From contig NZ_JAYKGW010000227.1 of the NCBI RefSeq assembly GCF_035285525.1, positions 1 to 27,055 of the forward strand: DNA of 27,055 nt. The letters are read 5' to 3'. Positions 4,603 through 19,604 of the stretch are shown here, in pieces. Numbering within the stretch: the first letter of the stretch is position 1; each line of letters begins with the position of its first letter. This stretch comes from Okeania sp. (GTDB taxonomy: Bacteria; Cyanobacteriota; Cyanobacteriia; Cyanobacteriales; Microcoleaceae). The notes under the pieces were generated by a model. It was not told where the DNA came from. It saw only the letters and a program-made list of their open reading frames with translations, and did no database searches. The translations under genes and the position numbers were made by a program.

Positions 4603-4632
4603 TTATTAATTATTAATTATTAATTATTAATT
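4600..4632. repeat. STRR-type heptamer tandem repeat (TAATTAT x4.7)
   Basis: The array begins with the TAA stop codon of the binding-protein gene. Confidence 0.85.
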
Positions 4633-4722
4633 CCCTCTTCTTGTAAAGTCTAGTAGTGAACTGACACAGCTAAAACGGTGCAATAGTAGGGGCAGGTTTT
4701 AGCTATAATTTTAATGCTTACT

Positions 4723-5248: not shown

Positions 5249-5267
5249 ATTATATATAGTCAAATCT

Positions 5268-5468
5268 TCATAATGGTTCATCAAAATCATCTGACATAAT
5301 AATTTTATCTGCCCAACTACCATAACGCCCAACAGTTTCTATCTTTTCCTGATATTGTTGATTATGAGGATATTTTTCTTGTAAATATTCTACATAATGT
5401 AATAGTTCGGTCTTCAAAGATTCAGGTAGATTAATCACAACTTTCCACAAAGCTAGCTCAATATTCAT
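5268..5468 (-). CDS. DUF2281-like antitoxin (partner of the decayed VapC)
   Basis: ATG at 5468 (the track start at 5486 is a TTG). LPESLKTELLHYVEYLQEKY and the C-terminal GSWADKIIMSDDFDEPL are typical of DUF2281-type antitoxins. The stop lies 19 nt upstream of the vapC ATG. Confidence 0.65.
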   Translation of the reverse strand: MNIELALWKVVINLPESLKTELLHYVEYLQEKYPHNQQYQEKIETVGRYGSWADKIIMSDDFDEPL

Positions 5469-5755
5469 AATTTTTATTAGAGACAATTTATTTCAAAATA
5501 ATATCATCTGTAAAAAAACTGTAGGGGTTTGGTTTCCAAATCCCTTTGCGCTTGGGTTTGGAGGCCAAACCACTACTATAAAATCTGACAATCTATATTA
5601 GGATTGCTATACTTAACAAAAATCTATGACAAGAATTACCTAAACAAACCAAGAAACCGGGTTTATTGCCCTGATATTGTTGTTAAAACCACTAAATTTC
5701 GTTCATCAACCCGGTTTCTGTCTAGGTCCAGTATGAAAATTCCCAAAATGCTTCT

Positions 5756-6649
5756 ATGTATAATTCCCTTGAAAAAAGAGAAAAATTAACAGGATGGCTA
5801 TTAATTACACCAGCCATTATCATATTATTATTTGTATTTGCTTATCCAATTACTCGCGCTTTTTGGTTAAGTCTATTTACCCAAAATCTTGGTACAGAAT
5901 TAAAGCCTATTTTTTCTGGTTTAACCAACTACAACCGCATCTTAGCTGATGGTCGTTTTTGGCAAACTTTATCGAACACAACAATATTTACAACCTGCTC
6001 TATTTTCCTAGAATTAATATTAGGAATGAGCATTGCTTTAATCTTAGATAAATCATTCCGAGGTAGAGGTTTGGTTCGTACTATTAATCTGATTCCTTGG
6101 TCATTACCAACCGCAGTTATGGGGTTAGCTTGGGCATGGATTTTTAACGACCAATTTGGCATAGTTAATGACTTACTTTTACGGTTGGGATTAATAGCAG
6201 AAAAAATTACTTGGTTAGGAGATCCCTTCCGAGCAATGTGGGCAATGATTATTGCTGATGTTTGGAAAACAACCCCATTTATTGCTATTATTTTATTGGC
6301 AGGATTACAATCTATTTCTTCTGATTTATATGAAGCTCATGCTATTGATGGAGCTAACCCAATCCAAAGTTTTAAACAAATTACTATCCCCCTATTAATG
6401 CCACAAATAGTAATTGCTTTATTATTCAGATTTGCTCAAGCATTTGGCATTTTTGACTTAGTACAAGTAATGACCGGAGGGGGACCTGCTGGAGCAACAG
6501 AAACAATTTCTATCTATATTTATGCTACTATTAGACGTTATTTAGATTTCGGTTATGGAGCTTCTTTAGTTGTCGTAACATTTCTATTATTAATTCTGGT
6601 GGTAGCGATCGCTAGCATTACTACCCAGAAATTAAAAGTTAAAAATTAA
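5756..6649 (+). CDS. carbohydrate ABC transporter permease (MalF/UgpA-like)
   Basis: 297-aa ORF with about six hydrophobic segments. EAA-type loop YEAHAIDGANPIQSFKQITIPLL. Confidence 0.9.
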   Translation: MYNSLEKREKLTGWLLITPAIIILLFVFAYPITRAFWLSLFTQNLGTELKPIFSGLTNYNRILADGRFWQTLSNTTIFTTCSIFLELILGMSIALILDKSFRGRGLVRTINLIPWSLPTAVMGLAWAWIFNDQFGIVNDLLLRLGLIAEKITWLGDPFRAMWAMIIADVWKTTPFIAIILLAGLQSISSDLYEAHAIDGANPIQSFKQITIPLLMPQIVIALLFRFAQAFGIFDLVQVMTGGGPAGATETISIYIYATIRRYLDFGYGASLVVVTFLLLILVVAIASITTQKLKVKN

Positions 6650-6892
6650 AAGGCAAAAGTATCGGTAAAATTCAAGAACCTAGGGGTTTGGTCTCCAATT
6701 TTTCGGGAACCGTACCCTATACAAACTAAGAACTTTCCCCAATACTGATGGTACACCCTTATTCTCCAAAGCCAGTTGAATAGTTATAAATAACGAGGGA
6801 GGAGTCAGGAGTTAACCCACCCCTAACCCCTCCCAGGAGGGGAAAAAGAAGAAACAAGTTTTTTTATCATTGATTATCCGGACATGATATTA

Positions 6893-6913
6893 CTGATAAC
6901 TGATAACTGATAA
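6893..6913. repeat. STRR-type heptamer tandem repeat (CTGATAA x3)
   Basis: Direct reading. The array ends 9 nt before the ATG at 6923. The same repeat occurs in the gene-proximal orientation at 26112-26128, upstream of the minus-strand gene that ends at 25993. Confidence 0.85.
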
Positions 6914-6922
6914 CTGAAGAAA

Positions 6923-7777
6923 ATGTCTATCTCAAAAAATCAATCATCAATCAAAATAGGCAGAATAATTCTGTGGATAGGTGTAGTTTTAACTGTCATA
7001 TTTTGCCTAGCTCCTGTTTTATGGCAATTACTAACTTCCTTCAAAACTAATGAGGCAATATCAGCAGTTCCTAATGTCTACTTTCCTTCCCTCAACCAAC
7101 TAACTTTTGACCACTATCTCAGTCTCGGTTCGGATTTTCTGCGCTATATTTTTAATAGTGCTTTTGTTTCGATTATTTCCACAATAATTTGTTTAGGAAT
7201 AGGAGCGCCTGCTGCTTATACTTTAGCCCGATTAAAAATACCAGGAGAAAATATTATTATTGCCTCTGTTTTAATAGTCAGTCTGTTTCCTTATGTCTTG
7301 TTATTTTTAGGACTATTAGAAATTATTAGAACTCTTGGTTTAGGTAATAATTATATATCCCTAATTATTCCTTACACAGGCATTAATTTACCTCTAACAA
7401 TTCTAGTTTTAAGAAGCTTTTTTCAACAGTTACCAAAAGACATAGAAGACTCTGCCAAAATAGATGGTTATAACACAATTTCTATGTTGTGGAATATTGT
7501 TTTACCTCTAACAATTCCCGCATTAGTAACTACAGGAATTTTAACCTTTATTTTTGCTTGGAATGAATTTATTTTTGCCCTGACTTTCATTACTCGTTCA
7601 GAAATGTATACTATTCCCGTTGCAGTCGCTCAAATAGGTGGTACTTCTATATTTGAAATTCCTTATGGACCTATTGCTGCAGCCACAGTAACAGGTACAT
7701 TTCCTTTAGTAATTTTAGTATTAATCGCTCAACGGCGAATTGTTCAAGGTATTACAGCAGGTGCTGTTAAAGGTTAA
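6923..7777 (+). CDS. carbohydrate ABC transporter permease (MalG/UgpE-like)
   Basis: 284-aa ORF with multiple TM segments. EAA-type loop EDSAKIDGYNTISMLWNIVLPL. Confidence 0.9.
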   Translation: MSISKNQSSIKIGRIILWIGVVLTVIFCLAPVLWQLLTSFKTNEAISAVPNVYFPSLNQLTFDHYLSLGSDFLRYIFNSAFVSIISTIICLGIGAPAAYTLARLKIPGENIIIASVLIVSLFPYVLLFLGLLEIIRTLGLGNNYISLIIPYTGINLPLTILVLRSFFQQLPKDIEDSAKIDGYNTISMLWNIVLPLTIPALVTTGILTFIFAWNEFIFALTFITRSEMYTIPVAVAQIGGTSIFEIPYGPIAAATVTGTFPLVILVLIAQRRIVQGITAGAVKG

Positions 7778-7970: not shown

Positions 7971-8207
7971 ATGAAACATCTAGACTTAGATGAAACCAAT
8001 ATTGACTTAACAGTAATTATTAACGAAATTGCTGCTAATCAGTCTGAAATTGTCATTACCCGCCAAGGTTTGCCAGTTGCTCGTATTATTCCTTATACTA
8101 TTTCTGACGCACCGACAAAAAATTATCCATTACGGGGAATGCCAATCAAAATTGCTGCTGATTTTGATGAACCGATGCCTGAACTTTGGGATGCTTTAGG
8201 AAAATGA
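7971..8207 (+). CDS. Phd/YefM-type antitoxin
   Basis: 78-aa ORF with a C-terminal ADFDEPMPELWDAL tail typical of cyanobacterial prevent-host-death antitoxins. It has a 4-nt ATGA overlap with the downstream PIN gene. Confidence 0.75.
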   Translation: MKHLDLDETNIDLTVIINEIAANQSEIVITRQGLPVARIIPYTISDAPTKNYPLRGMPIKIAADFDEPMPELWDALGK

Positions 8208-8599
8208 TTTTACTTGATACTCATGTTTGGTTATGGCTACTTCATAACCCCAGTCAATTATCGGAATCCGCCAAAATCGCAATTGATAGGGAAGAACCCC
8301 ATAATGGTTTGCTAGTATCGCCAATTTCGGTTTGGGAAATTGCGGTTAAATCAAGTATTGGTAAATTGATACTACCTTTACCCATTGATGAATGGTACAA
8401 TTTTGCTTCAACTCATTCTGGTATTGTAATTGAACCCCTGTCTCCACTGGATGCTATTGCCAGTACATCCTTACCTGAGACTTTCCATAAAGATCCAGCA
8501 GATAGAATTTTAGTAGCGATCGCCAGACGATACGGAATTGTTTTAGTAACTTGTGATGTCAAGATTTTGAACTATCCTCATGTCCAAACACTTTGGTAG
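8204..8599 (+). CDS. vapC: PIN-domain VapC toxin
   Basis: ATG at 8204 (the track start at 8186 is a TTG). Conserved acidic positions occur in LLDTHVW, VWEIAVK, HKDPADRILVA and VTCDVKI. Confidence 0.85.
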   Translation: MILLDTHVWLWLLHNPSQLSESAKIAIDREEPHNGLLVSPISVWEIAVKSSIGKLILPLPIDEWYNFASTHSGIVIEPLSPLDAIASTSLPETFHKDPADRILVAIARRYGIVLVTCDVKILNYPHVQTLW

Positions 8600-8624
8600 T
8601 GTAATAGCTGTAGGTTTGGTTGTT

Positions 8625-8818
8625 ATTGTTAAAGGAGGTAATCAATACCATGTTATCCTTCGCACAAAACCTCATTGAGGTAGGCAATGATTACGAATTT
8701 ATTGAGTTATGGGTAGAGCCAGCGGGAAATTTCTGAACGTGGTATTTGCATCCATTATGATGTTGAGGAATTTGAGGAGGAGTTGAAAAACTTCTCTATT
8801 TTTCTAAATATCCATTAA
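8625..8818 (+). pseudogene. Remnant of a second copy of the 10151-10730 toxin/immunity-like cassette
   Basis: 8625-8721 aligns by eye with 10448-10544 (end of the toxin-like ORF, the AAGGAGG site and the start of the immunity-like ORF). The remnant reads MLSFAQNLIEVGNDYEFIELWVEPAGNF then stops. A downstream piece, HYDVEEFEEELKN, resembles 9214-9250. Confidence 0.5.
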
Positions 8819-8844
8819 AATTAAGTAAATTTAGGATTATAATA

Positions 8845-9084
8845 ATGAGCAATACAATAGTTAGCGATAGAGGACAAATAACAATCCCTGAAGAAATTAG
8901 GAACTACCTTAAACTGAATGCAGGGAGTAAAATAGAATTCGTCATTGATGAACAGGGAGAAGTTAAAATAATTCCTCTAAAATTCTCTGTGGAAGACTTG
9001 TCCGGTATCCTACATCATCTGGGAATTGAACAAGCAACCATTAAGGATATGGAAAATGCAATCCAGGAGGCAGCTAATGATTGA
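8845..9084 (+). CDS. AbrB/MazE/SpoVT-family antitoxin
   Basis: 79-aa ORF with SDRGQITIPEEIRNYLKLNAGSKIEFVIDEQGEVKIIPL, a swapped-hairpin AbrB-type DNA-binding motif. It overlaps the following decayed PIN start. Confidence 0.8.
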   Translation: MSNTIVSDRGQITIPEEIRNYLKLNAGSKIEFVIDEQGEVKIIPLKFSVEDLSGILHHLGIEQATIKDMENAIQEAAND

Positions 9085-9272
9085 AGTTGATACCAATATT
9101 TTAAGTTCGCTATTTGACTAGAGATGATCAATTACAGTGGGAAAAAGCACTAGAGATTATTAGAGAAAATCAGCCATGTTTTGTTTCTAATGTGGATAGC
9201 CGTCTTTTATCTTATGATCTTGAGGAGTTTGAGGAAGACATTAAAACTTTGCAGGAAATGGGTAGGTTATGA
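9077..9272 (+). pseudogene. vapC: Decayed vapC (frameshifted, truncated) fused to a 3' remnant of the immunity-like gene
   Basis: MIEVDTNILSSLFD then a stop at 9119-9121. It continues in another frame as RDDQLQWEKALEIIRENQPCFVSNV (PIN N-terminal region). It then joins gtggatagccgtcttttatct (9192-9212), which matches 10693-10713 with one mismatch. Confidence 0.6.
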
Positions 9273-9379
9273 TTGTTATCAGTCTAATACAAACTTTAGT
9301 AAGCTACAACTCTGGGTAGCGATCGCTAATAATATGTTAAAATCCAAATAAGCCTATTTATTGTATTTGAAAATTAGTT

Positions 9380-9706
9380 ATGTCTAAAACATCTACAATT
9401 ACAGAACACATTGAAATTACTCCAGGAATTTGTGGTGGAAAACCTCGGATTGCTGGCCATCGAATTAGAGTAGAAGATATTGTTATCTGCCATGAAAAAA
9501 TGGGTTTTTCACCAGATGAAATTGTCTCTCAATATCCTAGTATTACTTTAGCTGATGTTTATGCTGCTTTGACTTATTATCACGATCATTTAGAAGAGAT
9601 TAGGCAGCAAATTTTGGAGGATGAAGAATTTGCTAGAGCAATGCAAGCTGAAACTCCTTCTTTAGTGGCAAAAAAATTACGAGAAAGTTATGGCAGAAAA
9701 GATTAA
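9380..9706 (+). CDS. DUF433-domain protein (antitoxin-like)
   Basis: 108-aa ORF with the ITPGICGGKPRIAGHRIRVEDIV signature of DUF433. It overlaps the next gene by 17 nt. Confidence 0.8.
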   Translation: MSKTSTITEHIEITPGICGGKPRIAGHRIRVEDIVICHEKMGFSPDEIVSQYPSITLADVYAALTYYHDHLEEIRQQILEDEEFARAMQAETPSLVAKKLRESYGRKD

Positions 9707-10025
9707 ATTTCATCTAGATGAAAATGCTCCTAATGCAATAGCTGGTGGTTTAAGGCGACGAAATATTGATGTAACTACTACTTCTGAGGCTAGTTTAATT
9801 TCTCTGTCAGATGAAGAACAATTGATATTTGCTACGAATCAAAATCGGGTTATTTTTACTCAGGATAGAGATTTTTTGCGACTGCATTATGCTGGTTTTT
9901 CACATAGTGGAATTGCTTATTGTGTTAAGGGCAGTCGTTCAATAGGTGAAATTTTACGCGGACTAATTCTGATTTGGGAAGTATTGGAACCTGAAGATAT
10001 GATTGGAAAAGTTGAGTTTTTGTAA
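9690..10025 (+). CDS. DUF5615-family PIN-like nuclease (toxin-like partner of DUF433)
   Basis: 111-aa ORF containing KFHLDENAPNAIAGGLRRRNIDV and FTQDRDF. The DUF433/DUF5615 pairing is a recurrent two-gene module. Confidence 0.7.
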   Translation: MAEKIKFHLDENAPNAIAGGLRRRNIDVTTTSEASLISLSDEEQLIFATNQNRVIFTQDRDFLRLHYAGFSHSGIAYCVKGSRSIGEILRGLILIWEVLEPEDMIGKVEFL

Positions 10026-10150
10026 TCTAAAAGGTTTTGCTAGAAAGCGATCGCTTCTAAAATCTGGTTGGTTTAGGAAGGAGTAATTGCCTCTTGATAA
10101 CAACTATTCTTAGCAAAAGATTGTATAATTTAGTAATGATGTAGATTTCC

Positions 10151-10501
10151 GTGAATGGTATTAACCGCGAATTAATTTCCCATCCGAGAACTAGCTTATT
10201 TGATAAACACCTTCCTGGTACGCCTCAAGTAGCAAGACTATTGAGGAAGGAAGGAAAAGCCCATGTTTTTAAAGATCGTGCTACAATGGAATTTGTCGTG
10301 GGGGCTATTATTCAAAGGGGAGAACTAACAGGAGTTGAGGATGAAAATGATGACTACGAACGTTATGGACTTTATTTTGACGAACCGATAGGTTATCAGA
10401 TTAGAGCAGATGGTAGCAGTATTCCACTTTATTATGCTGAAATAAAAATTGTTAAAGGAGGTAATTTATACCATGTTATCCCTCCCACAAAACCTCGTTG
10501 A
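10151..10501 (+). CDS. Hypothetical protein, possible orphan toxin C-terminal domain
   Basis: 116-aa ORF with only a GTG start and no obvious SD, so it may be 5'-truncated. It overlaps a small downstream ORF by 29 nt. I recognised no family. Confidence 0.45.
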   Translation: MNGINRELISHPRTSLFDKHLPGTPQVARLLRKEGKAHVFKDRATMEFVVGAIIQRGELTGVEDENDDYERYGLYFDEPIGYQIRADGSSIPLYYAEIKIVKGGNLYHVIPPTKPR

Positions 10502-10730
10502 GGTAGGCAATGATTGGGAATTTATTGAGTTATGGGTAGAGCCAATTGTTTTTCCGCCTCGCATTTTGATGTTAGCTGGTGGCAAACAAGGAAATTTTTG
10601 TATTTATGATGCTACTGCTAACTACAAACCTTTGTTTGAGAGCGCTATTTATGATGAAGCCCACTCGTGGTTAGTTGAAGATGATTATGAGCGGGTGGAT
10701 GGCCGTCTTTTATCTGGGGAATTTTTTTAG
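10473..10730 (+). CDS. Hypothetical small acidic protein, possible immunity/antitoxin partner
   Basis: ATG at 10473 is preceded by AAGGAGG (10455-10461); the track start at 10449 is a TTG. 85 aa. Its 5' and 3' ends recur as remnants at 8650-8736 and 9192-9212. Confidence 0.5.
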   Translation: MLSLPQNLVEVGNDWEFIELWVEPIVFPPRILMLAGGKQGNFCIYDATANYKPLFESAIYDEAHSWLVEDDYERVDGRLLSGEFF

Positions 10731-10869
10731 CATTGGGGCGATCGCTCCTCAAATCTGGTTTGTTGACGAAGGAGCGATCGCTCTTGTTTAAAAATTGGGA
10801 TGGGATATGAGGGAGCTGTTGCCTTTCGTTAACTAATATGTTATAGTTTATAATTTTCAGAAAATTGAT

Positions 10870-11214
10870 AGCTGTAGGTTGGGTTGTTTGCGTTAGCATT
10901 GCGGAGCATGGAACGTTAGCGGAGCTTATCCGTAGGATCAACCCAACATTAGTAGGGTTTTGTTGGGTTTCACTCCGTTCAACCCAACTACATTTGCGTA
11001 AGTCCTAATAAATCCGTATATCCGTGGCCAAATCACTGTCTAGCTGTAGGTTGGGTTGTTTGCGTTAGCATTGCGGAGCATGGAACGTTAGCGGAGCTTA
11101 TCCGTAGGATCAACCCAACATTAGTAGGGTTTTGTTGGGTTTCACTCCGTTCAACCCAACCTACATTTGCGTCAGTCCTAATAAATCCGTATATCCGTGG
11201 CTAAATCACTGTCT
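10870..11214. repeat. Near-identical tandem duplication of a 172/173-bp structured unit
   Basis: Copy 1 is 10870-11041 and copy 2 is 11042-11214. I see only three differences: one 1-nt indel and two substitutions. Each unit holds a long hairpin (gtaggttgggttg ... caacccaac) and a second hairpin (gttgggtttcactccgttcaacccaac). A third unit starts (agct) and overlaps the TAG stop of the gene ending at 11217. Confidence 0.9.
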
Positions 11215-11216
11215 AG

Positions 11217-12632
11217 CTAAAGCTTCTTAATCCCCCTTAAAGCCATAATTTTCTGAATAATAACAGTGAATCCTGCTCCCATAACACCAAAAAATAAACT
11301 TAAAAATAGGGTTTGAGTCAAAGGATGGAGATGAAAATCAGGCAACAGAGGTTTTTCCGGTTCTTGGGCAATTATATATGGAGCAACTGTGGCACCAACT
11401 GCTCCTGACGTCAAACCTACACCCATAATAGCTATGGTATTTTGGAAAGAGCGATCGCTTTCTGTTTGTTCGATATCTACTCTACCCTGAATAGCTGTCA
11501 TCGCTTTTTCTAGTAATGTAGCTCCATGCTGAAAGTAGCCTAAGTCCGATTGGAGTTGTTCTCTAAATAAGCGATAGTCTTCATCAAAAAATTGAGACAG
11601 GAAACTAAGATTTTCTCCTGGAAGTTGGCTTTGAATATCATTTATTTCTCGTTTATAGTTTTGGGCGTTGATATCAATAGTTAAGCGATAGTTATCTAGC
11701 TCACGAGTAAATTGATTATATGATAAATATTTTTGGGGAATCTCTTTTAAGTATTTTTTGAATTGATTTAATTCTTTTTCAGTTAGCTTTTTATCAACTG
11801 GCATTCCCTGGAAAATTTCCTGAATATAGGATTCAATAGCTAGATACTCCTTGCGAAGTACATCGTGGACTTGACGACTAAGTTTGTAAGCTGTGACTAC
11901 TTTGTTTAAATAACAAAATAGATTCACAAAGGATGAATAATAGTGGGTAAATTTCCTGTCGGTTTCAGTTTCACAGAATATCCAAACCACTACATGGCAG
12001 TAGTCCTTTCCTTGAGTAGGAACACCGTATTCAAAAATAGGACTGCCAAATAATTGACTTTCTCGATAAAAGTCAGGACAAGAATATTCGTTAGGAATAA
12101 ATCCTCTCAAACAATTATCTGCCAGTTCCCTAAGTTTTTGGCGATTTTGTAAAGATTTCCTCGGCAACCACTGTTTTTCCTGTGTGTACCAAACTGTTAA
12201 GAGCAAAGTTTGACCAAGAGAACTCCCTATTTCAGTAGGCATTAAGCATCCTGAAGGATTAAGAAGTTTCAGAAAGTTCGGGTTTAGGGGATTTGTTTTT
12301 TTCCCATTCTCGTCTAACTCGGGACGGCGAATATTGAGAGCGAGGGTGTAGGTATCGTGAATGCGGATGGGAGCAGCAACTCCCGTAATAGGGAGTTGTG
12401 TCCCATCTAGGAAGACTTGACTCTCAAAATGGAGAGCCACATCATCCTCTGTTTTATGTTTGAGCAAGTCAACGCGATATCCTATTTGCTCCTCAATTTC
12501 TAGGGGTTGGGTAAGGCCAAATTTCCGGGACAGAATGGTATTGCATTTGTCCCAGAGTAGGTTAGGGCGATCGCTTTCTTTTAAATGAAAAGCAAATAAA
12601 TGGACATTAGGAGCATAGACTTTTTTAATCAT
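11217..12632 (-). CDS. Candidate membrane effector: soluble N-domain, coiled coil, two C-terminal glycine-zipper TM helices
   Basis: Long ORF. The first ATG is at 12632 (MIKKVYAPNV) and overlaps the upstream stop as ATGATTAA; the track start at 12665 is a TTG. TM1 IAIMGVGLTSGAVGATVAPYII is at 11370-11435 and TM2 LTQTLFLSLFFGVMGAGFTVIIQ is at 11253-11321. A heptad-rich region precedes them. I recognised no family. Confidence 0.8.
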   Translation of the reverse strand: MIKKVYAPNVHLFAFHLKESDRPNLLWDKCNTILSRKFGLTQPLEIEEQIGYRVDLLKHKTEDDVALHFESQVFLDGTQLPITGVAAPIRIHDTYTLALNIRRPELDENGKKTNPLNPNFLKLLNPSGCLMPTEIGSSLGQTLLLTVWYTQEKQWLPRKSLQNRQKLRELADNCLRGFIPNEYSCPDFYRESQLFGSPIFEYGVPTQGKDYCHVVVWIFCETETDRKFTHYYSSFVNLFCYLNKVVTAYKLSRQVHDVLRKEYLAIESYIQEIFQGMPVDKKLTEKELNQFKKYLKEIPQKYLSYNQFTRELDNYRLTIDINAQNYKREINDIQSQLPGENLSFLSQFFDEDYRLFREQLQSDLGYFQHGATLLEKAMTAIQGRVDIEQTESDRSFQNTIAIMGVGLTSGAVGATVAPYIIAQEPEKPLLPDFHLHPLTQTLFLSLFFGVMGAGFTVIIQKIMALRGIKKL

Positions 12633-12999
12633 TGTTCTGATTTTGGTCAGGTTGTGCTGATTCAAATTCAGTTGAGTCGGTTCTTTCGGATAGTTTTTCC
12701 TTAACCTTTTCGCTCAATTCTGGGAAGGTATTGGTGATACGAGCAGATTCATTTGCCTTCGAGGGTGGGACTTTTGTCAACTCTTTAGTATTTTGTAGAT
12801 TCTCTAGTCTTATAAGAGCATCAACTATAGACGGTCTTGTTTTACACCAATCTCCAAGAATGAGGTCGGCATTTTTTGGGGGATCATTCTCTAGGGGAGC
12901 CAAGGTTTGCTGCAAGTCTTGGAGGTCAGCAGTAGAAAACAGTTCAGGCTCGGTTTCTAAAAGAAGGGGGAAATTTTGGAGAAAAGGGTTAGTAATCAT
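12625..12999 (-). CDS. Small acidic hypothetical protein (operon member)
   Basis: 124-aa ORF with ATG start. The N-terminal half is acidic and the tail is low-complexity (SERTDSTEFESAQPDQNQNND). It lies 75 nt downstream of the CHAT gene and is translationally coupled to the next gene. Confidence 0.6.
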   Translation of the reverse strand: MITNPFLQNFPLLLETEPELFSTADLQDLQQTLAPLENDPPKNADLILGDWCKTRPSIVDALIRLENLQNTKELTKVPPSKANESARITNTFPELSEKVKEKLSERTDSTEFESAQPDQNQNND

Positions 13000-13074
13000 T
13001 TTTAATCAAGATTTTAAATTATAAGTTGACTGGTGATGCTTTTGAGTCAAATGGACTGAACAAAAGCTTAAAGC

Positions 13075-16000
13075 TTACTTTCCAACAGTGCAGAAAGCTG
13101 CCCAGTGGTAAGGATCTTGGTAGAGTTGTCTGTCCGAAGGAAGGAAATATAGATATCCTTGAATCCTTTGGGCAAGCTCTTCTTCTAATTTTAACTTACT
13201 TGTCCACTTTTGTAGTTCTGCTACTGTAACATCCCGCAACCATAGTTGAGCTTGCTTGAGAGCCATAGCAACAGTTAGGCCAGACTTGAGGTTTTGATAA
13301 AACTTGATGAGTAAAAAAGCTGCGGATACTTGATTCACTGACCACAAACTGCTGACAACATTTGACGCACCTGCATAGAGGAAAGCACTGGGTAAACCAA
13401 TATATTCATCACTCCAGGATGTTAAGTCAATCAATCCTGTTTCACAAGCAGAGAGGGTTGCGAGGCGACATTGATTGAGGTTGAATCCAAAGATTTCTGC
13501 GAGAGTAAGTCTCCCATCTTTTTGAACATCATCTTTAGCTAGAGAAAGTGCAGAGGCATTGGCTATACCTAAGTTAAAGTTGCCATGACAGGAAAAATGA
13601 ATACAGTGGGATGACTGGAGGTGGGAGTTAGTTTTGACTTTTGCTTTCTTAGCATCTTTTCCAACTAAGACATCGACTGAATCAAAGTTGGAAAGAATTG
13701 CTTGTACTTCTATGTCTGCATAGATTAGATCCTCTGTCGGGTTTTGAACAGCAAACAGTTGGCTGAAGTAGGGACGTTCTCGTTTTTGAGTAAGTTGCAA
13801 TAGTTGGTTACTAGGAGCATAACTTACTCCTCCACTAAAGCGCTCGATAAGCAGATCGCCATTTGCTAGGGGCATAGCATGGAGAGGAAATAGATGTAGG
13901 TAGCGATGAGGAATCAGGATAAGACGGTTACACTTAATTCCTTGTTTGTCAAAGATGTTATCTATTGTTGTTAAGAGGCGATCGATTTCTAGGATATCAG
14001 CCAAATCTTTAAGACTAGAAGCTAAATTATTTCTCCACTGCTTTTTCTGCCGACGATACCCATCTAAATAGTCACCTGCCCAATCAATTAAAGACTTAAG
14101 TTCTTCAGCGGATGATTCTTGAACTATAGGTTGAACGCCATTGTTAGTTACGATAAAAGTTAATATTTTATCTTTAACAAGATACCATTGGATAATGACA
14201 GTCTGTTCGTCAATAAGATTTTGAATATCTCTATAGGAAATTAGTTCTACCCTCTGAGTTAGGTTGAAACTGGGATCTATACGTTGAATTTGATCTAGTA
14301 CCTCATTTAGCTGCTGTTGTGACTCCTGTAATTCTTGCTGTAGTCGCTTCTCTGAATTTTCTGACGCTCGTCTCTGCCTATTTAATAGTTGAAACTCATT
14401 TCCTGATAGTTGCTTTCTATCTATTTGTAACCGTTTTTCCAGTGATGTTATATTTCGCCGTAGCGAGTCTAGCTGAGTAATTATTTCTTGGGGAATATTC
14501 CCTTTTGGATAAAGATCGCTTCTGGCTAGACGCTCCACTAGGTTACGAGTTTTACTGCGCTCCACAATTTCGATGGCTTTATCAACCTGTCCTAGATTAA
14601 TGTATGCTTGCACCTGATTTTCATAAACCTCCATTGCCCCTTCCATAATCTCTTGGCGACGCTCATCAGTGTTTACCCAACTGCGGCTGATTTCGGCCGC
14701 AATCATGGCTGTTTCATAATTTTCAGTTGCTAGTTGCCAATTTCCCTTATCAAAGTATAAGTCACCTAATGTGTAGGCAGTTATAAAATGGTTAGAGGGA
14801 TTTGCTTCAATAGTGTAAATTTGAAGAGCTTTTTGCAAGCTAGCAATAGCAAATTCGATATTTTCTGCTTTGTCTCCTTTGATTCTGTCCCTGTAGGCAG
14901 TGCTGATATTATTTTGAATTCTTGCCCAGTCGTAGGGAAAGTTATTTTTTGTGTAAATTTGGAGAGCCTGTTCATATGCAGCAATAGCGAATTCAATATT
15001 TTCTGCTTTGTCTTCTTTGATTCTCTTTGCGTAAGCAGTGCCGATATTGTTTTGAGTGCTTGCCCAGTCGTAAGGAAAGTTGTTTTGTGTGTGAACATGG
15101 AGCGCTTGTTCGTATGCAGCAATAGCGGATTCAATATTTTCTGCTTTCTCTCCTATGATTCTATGGGAGTAGGCAATACCAAGGTTGTTTTGAGTGCTTG
15201 CCCAGTTGTCAGGAAAGCTGTTTTCAGTGAAAACTTGGAGAGCTTGTTCGTATGCAACAATAGCAGATTCGATATTCTCTGATTTGTTTCCTTTGATTCT
15301 GTCAGTGTAAGCACTGCCAAGATTGTTTTGAGTTTCTGCCCAGTTGTATGGGAAGTCAATTTTGTCATTAACTTGGAGAGCTTGTCCGTATGCAGCAATA
15401 GCAAATTCAATGTTCTCTGCTTTATCTCCTTTGATTCTGTCAGTGTAAGCATTCCCAAGATTGTTTTGAGTTTCTGCCCAGGGGTGGGGGTACTGAGTTT
15501 TAGTGCGAACCTGGAGAGCTTTTTTATATGCACTAATAGCAGATTCAATATTTTCTGCTTTGTCTCCTCTGATTCTTTTTTTGTAAGCACTCCCAAGATT
15601 GTTTTGAGTAGATGCCCATTCAATACGGAACTTAGTTTTGGTGTAAACCTGGAGAGCTTCTTGATGTAAATTAATTGCAAATTCGATGTTCTTTGCTTTG
15701 TTGCCTCTGATTCTGCGACTGTAGGCAACCCCGAGATTGTTCTTAGTCATTGCCCACTGCTTGGGAAACTTGTTTTTGGTGCGAACTTGAAGAGCTTGTT
15801 CGTATGCAGCAATAGCAAATTCAATATTCTCTGCTTTGTTGCCTCTGATTCTGTTTCTGTAGGCCATACCAAAATTGTGCTTAATTTTTGCCCATTTTTC
15901 TGGATACCTCTTTCTGGTAAGGATTGTTTCTGCTATATGATAACCTGCGATTGCAATTTCTACATTAACTGCTCTATTTCCCCGAGTAAATTTCATTATG

Positions 16001-16374
16001 TGGAAGGAAAACTCCCAAATTGCTTCAGCAATGCGTTCGGCAGTTTCCGGTTTAGCTTCTGGTTTAACTTCAGAAAATACAGAAGTTGCCCAGATTTTCA
16101 AGGTATCAATAAAGTCATCATCAAGCTCTTGTAGTAATACCTTGACAGATTGATCCCCCCTCACATCCCCTCTACTCTCAAGAATCCTTTGTAATATTTC
16201 AACCAAAAAATCTAGCTGAGATTTAAGGTGATCTGGTAATTTTTCTCTGGTTTCAGAGCTTGCCTTTAAATTCTTGAAATTCAAGTCTACAGCCAAAAAT
16301 CTGTCCTGTAGAAGTGAAGGTTTTAAAATGATTGCTATAGGTAGGAAAATATCGTGCAAACTTTCTTTTAACAT
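13075..16374 (-). CDS. TPR-repeat CHAT-domain (caspase-like) protease
   Basis: 1099-aa ORF with ATG start. It has nine 46-aa repeats ([32 protein letters not shown]...), a coiled coil (LEKRLQIDRKQL...QQELQESQQQLNEVLDQIQ) and a C-terminal CHAT domain. The His motif is IHFSCHG (His930 codon 13585-13587) and the Cys motif is TLSACETG (Cys977 codon 13444-13446). Confidence 0.95.
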   Translation of the reverse strand: MLKESLHDIFLPIAIILKPSLLQDRFLAVDLNFKNLKASSETREKLPDHLKSQLDFLVEILQRILESRGDVRGDQSVKVLLQELDDDFIDTLKIWATSVFSEVKPEAKPETAERIAEAIWEFSFHIMKFTRGNRAVNVEIAIAGYHIAETILTRKRYPEKWAKIKHNFGMAYRNRIRGNKAENIEFAIAAYEQALQVRTKNKFPKQWAMTKNNLGVAYSRRIRGNKAKNIEFAINLHQEALQVYTKTKFRIEWASTQNNLGSAYKKRIRGDKAENIESAISAYKKALQVRTKTQYPHPWAETQNNLGNAYTDRIKGDKAENIEFAIAAYGQALQVNDKIDFPYNWAETQNNLGSAYTDRIKGNKSENIESAIVAYEQALQVFTENSFPDNWASTQNNLGIAYSHRIIGEKAENIESAIAAYEQALHVHTQNNFPYDWASTQNNIGTAYAKRIKEDKAENIEFAIAAYEQALQIYTKNNFPYDWARIQNNISTAYRDRIKGDKAENIEFAIASLQKALQIYTIEANPSNHFITAYTLGDLYFDKGNWQLATENYETAMIAAEISRSWVNTDERRQEIMEGAMEVYENQVQAYINLGQVDKAIEIVERSKTRNLVERLARSDLYPKGNIPQEIITQLDSLRRNITSLEKRLQIDRKQLSGNEFQLLNRQRRASENSEKRLQQELQESQQQLNEVLDQIQRIDPSFNLTQRVELISYRDIQNLIDEQTVIIQWYLVKDKILTFIVTNNGVQPIVQESSAEELKSLIDWAGDYLDGYRRQKKQWRNNLASSLKDLADILEIDRLLTTIDNIFDKQGIKCNRLILIPHRYLHLFPLHAMPLANGDLLIERFSGGVSYAPSNQLLQLTQKRERPYFSQLFAVQNPTEDLIYADIEVQAILSNFDSVDVLVGKDAKKAKVKTNSHLQSSHCIHFSCHGNFNLGIANASALSLAKDDVQKDGRLTLAEIFGFNLNQCRLATLSACETGLIDLTSWSDEYIGLPSAFLYAGASNVVSSLWSVNQVSAAFLLIKFYQNLKSGLTVAMALKQAQLWLRDVTVAELQKWTSKLKLEEELAQRIQGYLYFLPSDRQLYQDPYHWAAFCTVGK
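14790..15985. repeat. Intragenic 138-bp (46-codon) tandem repeat array, about 9 units
   Basis: The ENIE(F/S)AI motif recurs at residues 137/183/229/275/321/367/413/459/505 of the CHAT protein, exactly 46 aa apart. DNA-level similarity between units generates several stop-free shadow ORFs on both strands. Confidence 0.85.
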
Positions 16375-16389
16375 ATTAATTACTACATA

Positions 16390-16490
16390 AATAATTTTCT
16401 GAATAGAGAAAGCTTCTTTTACAGATCATCGCGAAAACTTTGTTTTAGTGCCTCAATAAATTTCTGAATAGAGAAAGCTTCTTTTACAGA
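16390..16490. repeat. 36-nt direct repeat pair (16390-16425 and 16455-16490, one mismatch) at the junction of the ClpN-TPR and CHAT genes
   Basis: aataa(t/a)tttctgaatagagaaagcttcttttacaga is read twice, 65 nt apart. See the finding at 16374-16490. Confidence 0.9.
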
Positions 16491-17903
16491 ACGTTGACTA
16501 TTGATAAAGTTTTCAAGACTTGTTTCTTGTGTTTTACTAAAAATGTTTGTATAGTATTCGGCTTCGCTAGGTTTTGAGGACATCTCCTGCCAATACCTGA
16601 AAGAAAATTTTCCTGTCTTATCTAGGTTTGAGCGAGCTCTGGACAAGTTCCGTTTAGTGGCTTTGCACTTTTCAGGGGGGTCTTGTTTGTCATAAACAGA
16701 TAAAGCTAATTGATAGGCATGAACAGCTTTTTTCAGATTCTCAGTTTTATTGTCAATTCTTTGAATATAAGCATCGCTAAGATTACATTGAGTTTCTGCC
16801 CAATCAACCGGGTAATCCGCTTTAGTATAAACTTTCAGAGCTTCTAGGAATGCAGCAATAGCAGATTCAATGTTTTGTGCTTTGTCTCCTTTAATTCTGC
16901 TGCTGTAGGCAAGGCCAAGATTATTTTGAGTCATTGCCCAGTCGATAGGAAGGTTGTTTTGGGTACGAACTTCCAAAGATTTTTTGTATGCAGCAATGGC
17001 AAATTCAATATTTTCAGCTTTATCTCCAATGATCCTGTTAGTGTAGTAGCTATGGCCGAGATTGTGTTGAACAATTGCCCAAATTTCAGGATGATAGTTG
17101 GGACTCAAGAATGTGGACATTATTTCATAACCTGCAATGCTAATTTCTACATTAGCTGCTTTATTGCCCAAAGGAAACTCCCTAATGAGGTTACTGAAGC
17201 CGAAAATAAATGTAGCAAAATTTTCCACTACACTCACCTCTGCTTCCGACATAGTAGTTGCAAGATTTCGTAATACGTTAGCAAAGTTAAGATCGAGTTT
17301 ATCCAAATTAGCTTCTAGGAATGGATAAACTACTTCGGGGTTGCCATAGCTTTTTAGGGTAATCTGCAATACCTCCGACAAAAAATCCTGATAATCTTGA
17401 GGTGAGTAATTAGATGAAGTAACAGGTTGTGGATTTTCTTTCCTCTCGAATAGTTCAACAAAGCTCACATGAGTAATTTCATTGAAAATTTCTACTGGTT
17501 GTACCCCCATTTTTTCAAAGATTTTGACTTCTATTCCTTTTGGGAGATCGTTAGTTAAACCTAACAACACTGATAACAAATTTTCCGTGCAGACATTTTG
17601 GGCTTTTGAGCGTCTCGCCTCTTCTAAAGCTAACTCTAGAATTTTTTTAGCTCTTGGACTAAAAGGTATTTCTTCAGTATTTCTGCCTCCAGGCCCTCTA
17701 CCAACAATTTTCTCTACCTGAACACGGGCATCCTTCAGATTTATTCCCAGAGATTTGAGAACCTGTGCAGCTATGCCAGTATCTTCCGCAATCAATCCTA
17801 AAAGAATATGCTCTCCCCCAACAAAATTATGTCCCATACGTTGAGATTCTTGTTGGGCAAGCATAATCGCCTTAATCGCTTTTTCACTAAATCGCTCAAA
17901 CAA
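16419..17903 (-). CDS. ClpC-like N-terminal (Clp R) domain fused to a TPR-like repeat scaffold; no AAA+ module
   Basis: 494-aa [73 protein letters not shown] closely resembles the start of cyanobacterial ClpC as I remember it. It starts with TTG at 17903, 8 nt after a GGAGG (17912-17916). Residues from about 175 onward parallel the N-terminal module of the CHAT protein, followed by four 46-aa repeats. Confidence 0.9.
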
Positions 17904-17965
17904 TTTTCCTGCCTCCCGTTTCGTTATCTCAGTTTCCTAGTTTATATGAAAGTTATTCAACTATT

Positions 17966-18029
17966 ATGACAGCCTAGAAGGCTGTGTTACAATTTTATAG
18001 CTATGACAGCCTAGAAGGCTGTGTTACAA
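17966..18029. repeat. Twin 27-nt hairpin units (ATGACAGCCTAGAAGGCTGTGTTACAA x2)
   Basis: Units are at 17966-17992 and 18003-18029. The stem is ACAGCC/GGCTGT. The same twin recurs at 18463-18527. Confidence 0.85.
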
Positions 18030-18044
18030 AAGTTTTAAATTTAA

Positions 18045-18183
18045 TTAAGCAATAGTTAAAACAGAATATTGAACAATTTTTGGTAATTCAATTATTACAA
18101 AATAACCAGGAGGATAAAGATATTCTTATCCAGTTTCATCAAGTATTATTAAATCACCATCTTTTTTGCATCTTTATCAATCA
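18045..18183 (-). pseudogene. Decayed duplicate of the 77-aa gene at 18543-18776
   Basis: It aligns with 18543-18680. It reads ...KKDGDLIILDETG(stop)EYLYPPGYFVIIELPKIVQYSVLTIA, against DGDLRIVDKSGEDYLYSVDYFVIIELPKIVQDSVLTIA in the intact copy. There is also an upstream frameshift. Confidence 0.6.
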
Positions 18184-18206
18184 GTTAAAATAACTTAAGT
18201 TTCAAT

Positions 18207-18381
18207 TTAAAGACTTGTTTTGTTGGTGAGTAGGTTTAATTGTTGTGGAAATAATTTGTCTGCCACTAGCTGCTTGTTTTTTTCTAAATCTTCAACCATA
18301 GCGTGTAAATTATAATTAAAAGATTTAGCATATTCTTCTCGGTATTTATAAATTTCTGCTAATACTTCATCATGCCACATA
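18207..18381 (-). pseudogene. Possible frameshifted small gene (MWHDEVL / EIYKYREEYAKSFNYNLHAMVEDLEKNKQ...)
   Basis: The ATG at 18381 has an AGGAG 12 nt upstream, but the frame stops after 11 codons. Removing one T near 18360-18361 would give a continuous 57-codon ORF ending at 18207. Confidence 0.35.
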
Positions 18382-18462
18382 ACTTATTTAATCTCCTATT
18401 AGCTTCAGTTGATTTTGTTTATCCATAATTACAGCGGATTGCAGATTAGTATGGTACAGATT

Positions 18463-18527
18463 ATGACAGCCTGGAAGGCTGTGTTACAATTTTATAGCTG
18501 ATGACAGCCTGGAAGGCTGTGTTACAA
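18463..18527. repeat. Twin 27-nt hairpin units (ATGACAGCCTGGAAGGCTGTGTTACAA x2)
   Basis: Units are at 18463-18489 and 18501-18527, directly downstream of the 77-aa gene. They are part of a duplication of roughly 0.5 kb matching 17966-18183. Confidence 0.85.
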
Positions 18528-18542
18528 AAGTTTTAAACTTAA

Positions 18543-18776
18543 TTAAGCAATAGTTAAAACAGAATCTTGCACAATTTTTGGTAATTCAATTATTACAAAA
18601 TAATCAACAGAATAAAGATAATCTTCTCCACTTTTATCAACTATTCTTAAATCGCCATCTTTTGCTGCTTCTTCATCAATTAAAGCTACATAAATTTTAT
18701 GTAATTCCAAAGAAGCAGGATAATCTTTATTATTAATACAAACTGCAAATTTAGTTTCTGATTTCAGATTATTCAT
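18543..18776 (-). CDS. Small conserved hypothetical protein
   Basis: 77-aa ORF with ATG start. A decayed paralog 0.5 kb away implies it is a real gene family. No function recognised. Confidence 0.55.
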   Translation of the reverse strand: MNNLKSETKFAVCINNKDYPASLELHKIYVALIDEEAAKDGDLRIVDKSGEDYLYSVDYFVIIELPKIVQDSVLTIA

Positions 18777-18833
18777 AATTTTTAACCCAAATAAAATTAT
18801 AGATTACTTTTGAATTTTGACTTGAACATAACT

Positions 18834-19604
18834 CTACATTTGCCAAGCTTTCCAAAATGTATAAATAGCCAAAATTACCAACAAACTCTGAAAAGCAAAA
18901 CTGACAAATGAACTAGGCAACTTCGGCAGAAAACGAGTGCTAATTTGAGCGCCGATCAAACCTCCAAAACCTAAAAACAAGCCTCCGAAAAACACAATAT
19001 TGCCATTCAAATAATGACCGAAAGCAGCAGAAATAGAAGTAACAACAATTACACCTAAACTTGTTTGAATAGCAACTTTTATAGGTTCCCCAAGTAAAAG
19101 AATTTGCAGAGGTACCATTATTACTCCACCACCAACCCCAAATAAACCAGCTAATAATCCTCCTGTTCCCCCAGTAATAATTCTAGCCAGAGTAGCATTT
19201 CCCCATTGCTGTTTTTCACCATCTTTTTGTCTAGCTATAACCCGCTTGCGTAACCCGAACAAATAAATATTAATCAACATTAGTAAACCAAAACCCAATA
19301 ATAATAAACTCGAAGATAATTGTTCCGCCAAATAAACCCCTATTTGGGCAGCGAATAATGCTGGCAATGCTAACAAAAGAACTTTTTGAGGTTGAATGAA
19401 ACCCATACGCCAATTTTGCAGAGTACCAGAAGTGGCTGTAATTGTAATCGCTAAAGCGCTAGTTGCGACTGCTTGTATAGGTTCATATCCCAAAGTTACT
19501 AACAGCGGAACCATAACTGTACCACCGCCAATTCCTAAAAATCCAGCGAGAATACCGGAACCAAGACCACCTAATCCTAAAATCAAAAGGTTTGCGGGAA
19601 TCAT
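18834..19604 (-). CDS. TauE/SafE (TSUP) family membrane permease
   Basis: Polytopic ORF with duplicated Gly-rich motifs GFLGIGGGTVMVPLL and GLFGVGGGVIMVPL. The first ATG is at 19604; the track start at 19610 is a TTG. Confidence 0.85.
   Translation of the reverse strand: MIPANLLILGLGGLGSGILAGFLGIGGGTVMVPLLVTLGYEPIQAVATSALAITITATSGTLQNWRMGFIQPQKVLLLALPALFAAQIGVYLAEQLSSSLLLLGFGLLMLINIYLFGLRKRVIARQKDGEKQQWGNATLARIITGGTGGLLAGLFGVGGGVIMVPLQILLLGEPIKVAIQTSLGVIVVTSISAAFGHYLNGNIVFFGGLFLGFGGLIGAQISTRFLPKLPSSFVSFAFQSLLVILAIYTFWKAWQM

Follow-up and report, generated by a model that had tools for sequence, protein, structure and literature searches.

The results of our sequence comparisons and structure predictions suggested that two adjacent genes of the cyanobacterium Okeania sp. 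encode a membrane-associated effector and its partner. The genes lie in contig NZ_JAYKGW010000227.1 of assembly GCF_035285525.1, and the entire 27,055-nucleotide (nt) stretch that we analyzed (positions 1 to 27,055, forward strand) is referred to here as the window. One gene encodes a small acidic protein of 124 amino acids (aa); the other encodes a 471-aa protein, designated B, with a predicted CorA-like fold. We consider it somewhat probable that, in a three-gene conflict cassette of cyanobacteria, the small protein and B make up the constant effector module and that the cassette serves in immunity or programmed cell death. The observations that support the mechanism proposed below are the gene order and coupling, the intact protease site in the neighboring gene, the CorA-like fold of B with its two C-terminal hydrophobic helices, the combination of a constant module with variable sensor-proteases, and the mobility of the genes.

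The 124-aa and 471-aa genes are the last two of four genes that are arranged head to tail on the minus strand of the window, and they are preceded by genes for a 494-aa Clp_N and TPR protein and a 1099-aa TPR-CHAT protein. The features of the cassette itself are as follows.

13075 to 16374, minus strand: TPR-CHAT protease gene, 1099 aa (Pfam CHAT, E value of 2.4e-54; TPR_12/TPR_10)
12625 to 12999, minus strand: small acidic protein gene, an open reading frame (ORF) of 124 aa
11217 to 12632, minus strand: B gene, a 471-aa ORF for the CorA-fold membrane protein
12625 to 12632, minus strand: 8-nt overlap of the two genes, ATGATTAA, where the stop codon of the small ORF and the B start codon are both found

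The CHAT, small protein, and B genes form a conserved cassette

A word-indexed search recovered 424 homologues of B, and an exhaustive profile search yielded 1,011 representative clusters at 50% identity (E value of ≤1e-3). Species-representative genomes contained 346 relatives of B, and 80 of these 346 loci were kept. All of the kept loci were from cyanobacteria or metagenome-assembled genomes (MAGs), and most of the named organisms were filamentous. The nearest relative, which was 87% identical, was from Okeania, and several genomes carried two copies. ORFs were called in the kept loci and were then searched with the window proteins and with a hidden Markov model built from small-protein homologues. 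Cassettes were counted in the 72 nonredundant loci whose upstream sequence was 1.5 kb or longer.

In 59 of the 72 loci, the genes for a CHAT protein, a small protein, and B followed each other in this order on one strand, as they do in the window. Among the other loci were L019, L026, and L031 and a clade of orphan B genes, all of which are described below. A first-pass annotation of the window, which was made from the sequence alone, had proposed a functional link between B and the neighboring CHAT protein, and the recurrence of a CHAT gene directly upstream of the small protein and B genes supported this proposal.

The TPR-CHAT protein begins with a helical region, continues with TPR-like repeats of 46 aa that form an array, and has its CHAT domain at the C-terminal end (approximately positions 13081 to 13965). 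The predicted catalytic residues are His930 (13585-13587) and Cys977 (13444-13446), and the HG and SACETG motifs that carry the catalytic His and Cys were conserved in all of the CHAT domains in the cassettes. As indicated below, the TPR array is encoded by a tandem repeat.

14813 to 15854, minus strand: TPR-array tandem repeat with 7.6 copies of a 138-bp unit and 78% matches (Tandem Repeats Finder)

Across loci, the CHAT partner ranged from about 830 to 2,547 aa in length. This variation and the tandem 138-bp repeats suggested that the TPR array is a diversifying sensor region in which the number of repeats probably varies. The TPR-CHAT protein is the predicted sensor and protease partner of the small protein and B.

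Some loci had unusual arrangements. In locus L019 (1327-4938), the CHAT protein continues in frame from its C terminus into the small protein, apparently via a lost stop codon. In locus L056 (8001-9866; protein P0154), B is 621 aa long, and its second transmembrane (TM) helix is followed by an additional copy of the small protein's N-terminal half (E value of 6e-7); a separate small protein gene is also present. We counted the L019 fusion and the L056 extension in favor of a physical association between the parts. An apparent CHAT-B fusion in a Xenococcaceae MAG (L026; 5691-9440) was rejected as a Rosetta stone because it is a deletion that joins the first half of the CHAT domain, which lacks the catalytic His and Cys, directly to B. 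In Moorena producens 3L (L031; 2657-9209), B is split by an insertion with two ORFs on the opposite strand; both L026 and L031 are thus decayed cassettes. A distant 436-aa B-like protein (L090; 7001-8311) ends after a single TM helix. Its gene is located 216 nt downstream of a gene for a TPR and Peptidase_M48 membrane protease and has the housekeeping neighbors rpmI, rplT, and tsaD; the M48 adjacency could be another protease pairing or a coincidence.

The fourth gene of the head-to-tail array was not part of the conserved cassette.

16419 to 17903, minus strand: Clp_N and TPR protein gene, 494 aa (Pfam Clp_N, E value of 2.2e-20)

Residues 173 to 432 of the Clp_N-TPR protein matched the CHAT protein in its N-region and TPR repeats with 47 to 52% identity (BLASTP), and the Clp_N-TPR protein has no protease domain. 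No Clp_N match was found in 87 related loci, and we rejected the gene as a core component because it was absent from all 87. Based on its similarity to the CHAT protein, the Clp_N-TPR protein could be a local accessory, a decoy, a regulator, or a substrate-recruiting sensor paralogue.

The small protein and B genes are tightly linked

The first-pass annotation had placed the stop codon of the 124-aa ORF inside a sequence that also provides the ATG (12632) of the B gene, and we confirmed this 8-nt overlap, ATGATTAA, on the minus strand. The small ORF ends with ...AAC AAT GAT TAA, and B opens with the residues MIKKVYAPNVHLF and ends at position 11217. An alternative TTG start codon upstream, at 12665, would yield a B protein of 482 aa. 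In most related loci, B starts 3 to 5 codons ahead of a conserved YAPN(V/I)HLF strand, which supported ATG 12632 rather than TTG 12665 as the start of B in the window.

Overlaps were found in 26 of 65 small protein-B pairs (-4 nt in 15 pairs, -8 nt in 5 pairs, and -17 to -32 nt in 6 pairs), and the 15 junctions with a -4 overlap were of the ATGA type. The -8 junction of the window recurred in 4 related loci. In the nonoverlapping pairs, the genes were spaced by 3 to 29 nt (20/65) or by 45 nt or more (19/65). Hence, the genes were less than 30 nt apart or overlapped in 46 of the 65 pairs, and tight linkage is typical of the family, yet it is not obligatory. The operonic coupling suggested by the first-pass annotation was in agreement with the recurrence of a tight or overlapping junction in homologous cassettes. 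The fixed stoichiometry that it had read from the overlap fared less well, as about 30% of the homologous cassettes have gaps of 45 to 520 nt.

Promoter and terminator scans gave background-level signals only, and an Rfam scan of the window yielded no match. A tandem duplication of about 172 nt (10869-11225; 120 nt that are 100% identical plus 70 nt that are 90% identical) directly follows and overlaps the B stop codon. It carries the inverted repeat TGTAGGTTGGGTTG/CAACCCAACCTACA, which might serve as a terminator hairpin, and it resembles a small repeat element.

The module is found on plasmids and in a sister subfamily with other proteases

A tblastn search located the B family on 14 cyanobacterial plasmids, which were mostly conjugative or mobilizable. 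In contrast, tblastn searches of 50,697 phage records produced no B-family match. The arrangements of plasmid-borne and sister-subfamily genes were taken from RefSeq annotation and domain searches. Three plasmid arrangements are listed below (IS denotes an insertion sequence).

Nostoc sp. C052 plasmid (proteins WP_179070098.1 and WP_179070097.1): IS630, CHAT, small protein, B, IS110
Planktothrix plasmid, 27% identity (proteins WP_254034128.1 and WP_254034127.1): CHAT, 130-aa protein, B
Pseudanabaena plasmid: small protein, B, CHAT

A sister subfamily of more than 266 proteins was about 25% identical to the window B protein. All of the matches with organism names were cyanobacterial, and no meaningful Pfam domain was found in the sister-subfamily proteins. 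A small ORF of 105 to 160 aa is located directly upstream of B in both subfamilies. The sister-subfamily loci that we inspected had the following arrangements.

Fremyella plasmid (L093): 160-aa protein and B-like protein, divergent from a C14 caspase and a pentapeptide-repeat protein
Tolypothrix plasmid (L095): 155-aa protein and B-like protein, divergent from a trypsin-like peptidase and a caspase-family protein, with a TPR protein downstream
Mastigocoleus (L098): 154-aa protein and B-like protein, divergent from Peptidase_C14-NB-ARC-TPR and C14-iSTAND proteins
Oxynema (L099): 154-aa protein and B-like protein, divergent from a Peptidase_C14-nSTAND1-WD40 protein
Locus L100: 158-aa protein and B-like protein, divergent from an nSTAND1-WD40 protein

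Because both subfamilies keep a small protein and a B-type protein while the protease partner changes, the constant unit is the small protein plus the CorA-fold protein, and the variable unit is a caspase-fold or trypsin-like protease with TPR, WD40, or STAND sensors.

B has a predicted CorA-like fold and a highly conserved sequence

Scans of B and the small protein with Pfam, NCBIfam, and PADLOC produced only noise, which was consistent with the first-pass statement that B belongs to no recognizable family. A profile search of PDB sequences with B identified no relative and no CorA. We then aligned the window protein with 68 homologues (69 sequences) and used this alignment for an AlphaFold2 run; a superfamily sample of 138 sequences was used for conservation counts.

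The AlphaFold2 model of B had a predicted local distance difference test (pLDDT) score of 86 and a predicted TM-score (pTM) of 0.79, and it was weak only in the first TM helix (TM1) and in the loop between the TM helices. In the model, an alpha/beta domain (residues ~1 to 220) is followed by long helices at residues 232 to 275, 285 to 336, and 343 to 420, the last of which runs into TM1, and by the second TM helix (TM2) at residues 437 to 465. When the model was compared to PDB structures with Foldseek, the 21 best matches were all CorA, Mrs2, ZntB, or CmaX. These CorA-type matches had E values of 5.6e-4 to 1e-2 and probabilities of mostly 0.9 to 1.0, with about 350 aligned columns. In contrast, a Foldseek search of viral structures yielded nothing with an E value of ≤1e-3. 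The CorA-like topology proposed in the first-pass annotation was therefore supported by the layout of the model and by the fold matches. The domain sizes differed slightly from the first-pass estimate: the alpha/beta domain spans residues ~1 to 220 rather than the estimated ~260 aa, and three long helices extend from 232 to 420.

The two TM helices are located as follows.

11373 to 11444, minus strand: TM1 of B (residues ~397 to 420), rich in small residues, IAIMGVGLTSGAVGATVAPYII, based on hydropathy and the family alignment
11238 to 11324, minus strand: TM2 of B (residues ~437 to 465), with a conserved HP(L/F) motif before it and the basic tail QKIMALRGIKKL after it

With a 19-residue Kyte-Doolittle window, the hydropathy of B peaked at 1.58 near residue 399 and at 2.12 near residue 441. 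TM1 is preceded by a conserved stalk-end motif, AIxGRVxIEQxExDR. The C-terminal 15 residues had a net positive charge in 121 of the 138 family members, as in CorA. The two hydropathic segments and the positive tail predicted that both termini of B are cytoplasmic, which corresponds to a CorA-like in-in topology.

The first-pass annotation had described glycine zippers in both TM helices and had quoted the strings GVGLTSGAVGATVA, AQEPEKPLLPDFHLHPL, and GVMGAGFTV, all of which are present in B. In the case of TM1, this idea was supported: G404 and G406 were kept in at least 94% of the 138 superfamily members, and TM1 of the window protein has a GxxxG motif. The TM2 glycines were not conserved in the same alignment, and thus the glycine-zipper idea holds for TM1 only.

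Conservation was not limited to the TM region. Residue Y326 was invariant, and D93, Q141, E201, N322, N325, F348, Q359, and D363 were each found in at least 92% of the 138 sequences. The invariant and near-invariant residues are spread over the N-domain, the stalk, and TM1. This strong conservation throughout the protein points to B being a machine with defined conformations and not just an anchor in the membrane.

The small acidic protein has a conserved linker that is predicted to be disordered

The small protein has a pI of 4.4 and contains 22 Asp or Glu residues versus 12 Lys or Arg residues. Its AlphaFold2 model (pLDDT of 73) has a four-helix N-domain (residues 7 to 72), a helix at residues 91 to 114, and a polar/acidic tail. 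The linker between the two helical parts is located as follows.

12736 to 12777, minus strand: linker of the small protein (residues 75 to 88), TKVPPSKANESARI, with a pLDDT below 50 and a conserved sequence

The linker is flanked by nearly invariant E73 and N90 residues (column conservation in 74 and 44 family members). Because the linker is conserved yet predicted to be disordered, it is a candidate protease site or docking motif. The first-pass annotation had suggested that the small protein could be an inhibitor, a chaperone, or a cleavable pro-factor. The model as a whole is compatible with a cleavable or adaptor role, but it does not show one.

Pfam searches with 44 diverse small-protein members yielded no match even at an E value of ≤10, and a Foldseek search of PDB with the small-protein model found nothing (best E value of 2.6). 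The possibility that the small protein is homologous to the N terminus of the CHAT protein, as in EAD-type coupling, was rejected (hhalign probability of 1.2%).

Proposed mechanism and alternative explanations

In the mechanism that we propose, B would insert in the membrane through the pair of helices at its C-terminal end, and both of its termini would be cytoplasmic, as predicted from hydropathy and the positive tail. B would oligomerize in a CorA-like manner, and the small-residue-rich TM1 would line a closed pore. The small protein would be made together with B and might act as a cytoplasmic latch or adaptor. A trigger, such as an infecting phage or damage, would be sensed by the CHAT protein through its TPR array and N-region, and these would turn on the His930/Cys977 protease, which might then cut the small protein, possibly in linker 75-88, and/or B. 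As a result, the CorA-like gate would open, ions would leak, the membrane would depolarize, and the infected filament cell would arrest or die. Such a mechanism would follow the logic of death effectors that proteases license (bacterial gasdermin, EACC1, and Pepco), on the fold of the ligand-gated CorA effector of type III CRISPR. We hold tentatively the more specific idea that B is a CorA-superfamily channel turned into a proteolysis-licensed suicide pore and that the small protein is a cleavable safety catch, which is removed by the caspase-like protease.

A number of observations weighed against the effector mechanism. The cleavage, oligomerization, membrane insertion, and toxicity that it involves are all properties that we infer. 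PADLOC produced no match to the cassette, and we know of no phage defense phenotype for it. The link between B and CorA is at the level of the fold only. The Foldseek TM-scores of B to CorA-type structures were low (0.15 to 0.44), as would be expected when long helices splay in different ways. The hydrophobicity of TM1 is only moderate, and the model is poor there, with a pLDDT below 50 at residues 399 to 433. A Pfam search with 69 B members at an E value of ≤1 identified no family, including CorA (PF01544), and an hhalign comparison of the 69-sequence alignment with E. coli CorA was not significant (probability of 0.3%); the sole piece that aligned was the stalk-end IEQ motif plus TM1. The hallmark of the CorA/MIT family is a GMN (Gly-Met-Asn) motif at the outer end of TM1. 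This motif was found in the last 130 residues of none of the 138 superfamily sequences; 2 sequences had GIN, and the window protein has ...GATVAPYIIAQEP at this position. Our reading of the model and these searches is that B is built on a CorA-type scaffold, yet it falls outside the CorA metal-transporter family as defined. Homology between the small proteins of the two subfamilies was rejected as well (hhalign probability of 0.5%), and these proteins share their layout alone.

The effector mechanism also has to contend with B genes that lack the rest of the cassette. In an orphan clade with about 40% identity (L006 and L043 to L046; B at ~8001-9450), neither a CHAT gene nor a small protein gene was present. 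A gene for a RecQ-like helicase is located downstream of these B genes, recR is located upstream in L006, and an upstream ORF of similar size is found in L044. The housekeeping synteny indicated that B can work, or have another role, without CHAT; it suggested that the orphans are a vertically inherited paralogue with its own function. Of all the findings, the orphan clade argues most strongly for an activity of B itself.

The same findings bear on three alternative explanations. The idea that B is a regulated physiological or stress ion channel or transporter, with the small protein as a regulatory subunit, a protease that tunes its level, and no immune or suicide role, could draw on the CorA-like fold, on the orphan B genes in housekeeping synteny (by recR/recQ, or by M48 peptidase and ribosomal protein genes), and on the position of the window cassette among ABC transporter genes. 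It is nonetheless improbable, as the 138 members lack GMN and have no CorA sequence signature; the distribution is patchy, multicopy, and associated with plasmids and insertion sequences; the partners are NLR-like STAND/TPR/WD40-caspase proteins, which are typical of conflict systems; and the neighbors are toxin-antitoxin modules. The nearby toxin-antitoxin modules, the overlapping or tightly coupled genes, and the acidic small partner would suit a different idea, namely, that the small protein and B are a self-contained toxin-antitoxin-like pair (an acidic antitoxin and a membrane toxin) that resides by chance in the same islands as proteases. We regard this as very improbable. Subfamilies that are only about 25% identical both have a clan-CD or trypsin-like protease gene next to the module, in three gene orders overall, which goes far beyond island co-residence, and orphan B genes occur without a small partner. 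Pfam scans of the small protein and B identified no DNA-binding domain.

The main alternative, although unlikely, is that B is a membrane-anchored sensor or scaffold that detects membrane or envelope perturbation or tethers the complex to the membrane, that B, with the small protein as an adaptor, activates the TPR-CHAT protease, and that the lethal or regulatory substrates of this protease are located elsewhere. CorA cytoplasmic domains are sensor domains, and the many invariant polar residues in the N-domain of B suggest a ligand or partner site. The CHAT-small protein fusion described above would fit an adaptor role, and EACC1 was first proposed as such a membrane sensor (PMC7159879). In the comparable EACC1 and Pepco modules, however, the constant nonenzymatic partner proved to be the effector (PMC12642450). 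Moreover, the partner proteins already have large sensor arrays of their own (TPR, WD40, and STAND), and the cassette has no other conserved effector candidate.

Genomic surroundings of the window cassette

In the window, an ABC transporter appears to be split, and the cassette is located between its parts, together with PIN, DUF433/DUF5615, and DUF6972 modules. A cluster of small toxin-antitoxin-like genes (7971-10730) contains a PIN-domain protein gene (8186-8599) after a 78-aa ORF, an overlapping pair of DUF433 (9380-9706) and DUF5615/PIN-like (9690-10025) genes, and a DUF6972 gene (10151-10501) that overlaps a 93-aa ORF. The transporter is of the sugar type; the genes for its binding protein and two permeases are found at 3253-7777, and the ATPase gene is found at 20185-21249. 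The stretch of about 12 kb between these parts, which contains the toxin-antitoxin modules, the CHAT cassette, and a gene for a 258-aa multipass membrane protein, looks like an island inserted into or beside an ABC operon. The cassette of Oscillatoria PCC 10802 (L004) also adjoins ABC transporter genes.

A 498-nt tandem duplication is located upstream of the Clp_N-TPR gene (17963-18663). This region contains four copies of a 40-nt motif with a hairpin (ATGACAGCCTAGAAGGCTGTGTTACAA...), each of which overlaps a promoter-like hexamer pair. Downstream of the island, a gene on the minus strand (22205-24997) encodes a 930-aa PAS-GGDEF-EAL protein for cyclic di-GMP turnover, and there was no sign that it is tied to the cassette.

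Comparison with known systems

CorA, Mrs2, ZntB, and CmaX (MIT, PF01544) share with B a cytoplasmic alpha/beta domain and long helices, of which the stalk helix continues into TM1; next come a short loop, TM2, and a basic C-terminal tail. CorA channels are homopentameric, funnel-shaped assemblies that conduct divalent cations. In contrast to CorA, B lacks the GMN motif, a Pfam CorA match, and a significant match to the E. coli CorA profile. In addition, TM1 of B is glycine rich, B has 471 aa versus ~316 to 350, and B is encoded with caspase-like proteases and on plasmids.

A CorA-family TM protein that is associated with type III CRISPR is a proven antiphage effector, which is activated by SAM-AMP (PMC12255297). 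The CorA fold is thus competent for an immune role, and a CorA-type TM architecture is what the type III effector shares with B. The type III effector, however, is switched by a nucleotide messenger from Cas10 and is found alongside NrN or a SAM-AMP lyase, whereas neither cas genes nor a cyclase were among the annotated ORFs of the window, and the partner of B is a protease, with an extra small protein.

Craspase (type III-E) consists of Cas7-11 and the TPR-CHAT protein Csx29, which cuts Csx30, and it is found with Csx31 and RpoE. Like Craspase, the window cassette has a TPR-CHAT protease with small accessory proteins, which are substrates in the case of Craspase. The Csx29 model matched the window CHAT region only weakly (E value of 1.3e-23; 83.7 bits versus a cutoff of 300 bits), the Craspase substrates are unrelated, and the window has no sigma factor. 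There was no cas gene among the annotated ORFs of the window, and none of the ORFs was long enough for Cas7-11. Repeat tools, which were applied only to 10500-11300 and 13000-18900, detected no CRISPR array there, and no search aimed at arrays was made in the window.

The small protein and B were probably described earlier in silico. The names CATRA and CATASP reportedly come from an in silico prediction by Burroughs and Aravind in J Bacteriol in 2020 (202:e00365-20). CATRA is reportedly a "Caspase and TPR repeat-associated" protein, CATASP is a "CATRA-associated small protein," and their distribution is phyletically restricted; CATASP is listed among ten protease-associated modules and is outside the four characterized in PMC12642450. 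The names fit the CHAT, small protein, and B trio very well, and the comparison is one of names and descriptions rather than of sequences. The features expected of CATRA/CATASP were seen here, as a TPR-CHAT gene is directly upstream in 59 of 72 loci and the associated small ORF has 105 to 160 aa. The sister subfamily is also found where CATRA/CATASP would be expected, beside Peptidase_C14/TPR/STAND proteins. No Pfam model under any name matched B or the small protein. We think it fairly probable that the small protein and B are the same system as CATRA/CATASP. The CorA-fold assignment, the two subfamilies with swappable CHAT, C14, and trypsin-like partners, and an experimental function appear not to have been established before.

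In published work, protease-effector defense modules are marked by a constant module whose sensor-proteases can be swapped (PMC12642450; PMC7159879). For EACC1 and Pepco, experiments showed that a latent pore-former is released by site-specific cleavage, and EACC1 is cleaved into fragments of 5.7 and 7.1 kDa (PMC12642450). The gasdermin, EACC1, and Pepco systems resemble the small protein and B in that a constant, nonenzymatic, membrane-active module is found beside caspase-like or trypsin-like proteases, in that the proteases are fused to interchangeable STAND, TPR, and WD40 sensors, and in that they are enriched in multicellular bacteria (PMC7159879; PMC12642450). The differences are in fold and size, which are unrelated. 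Pepco is a beta-barrel, and the small protein and B are two proteins whose cleavage we infer. EACC1 was described with a single conserved TM helix (PMC7159879), and we rejected it as the identity of B or the small protein because it is small, has a single TM helix, and is found mainly in actinobacteria, where its gene is located 5' of the caspase gene. Pfam matches to the gasdermin, EACC1, and Trypco/Pepco families were found in neither B nor the small protein.

Protease-gated death effectors behind NLR-like sensors are an emerging main logic of bacterial immunity that parallels eukaryotic pyroptosis. The module described here is abundant (about 1,000 clusters at 50% identity), has two subfamilies, is confined to cyanobacteria, is plasmid-borne, and is unannotated in Pfam, NCBIfam, PADLOC, and RefSeq. 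Most likely, it serves an NLR-like system as a protease-licensed membrane effector that combines a CorA scaffold with an additional small subunit. If B is the executioner, it would provide a new effector fold for caspase-triggered cell death, link such death to the CorA effectors of type III CRISPR, and give a molecular handle on programmed cell death and phage defense in bloom-forming and filamentous cyanobacteria, including Okeania, Trichodesmium, Planktothrix, Nostoc, and Moorena. The three-gene system is also tractable for examining how proteolysis can open a channel gate. If the small protein is indeed a cleavable catch on a CorA pore, then filamentous cyanobacteria would use, behind NLR-like sensors, a solution to caspase-triggered membrane death that is structurally independent of both gasdermin and EACC1/Pepco; it would be the third such solution and the first that consists of two proteins.

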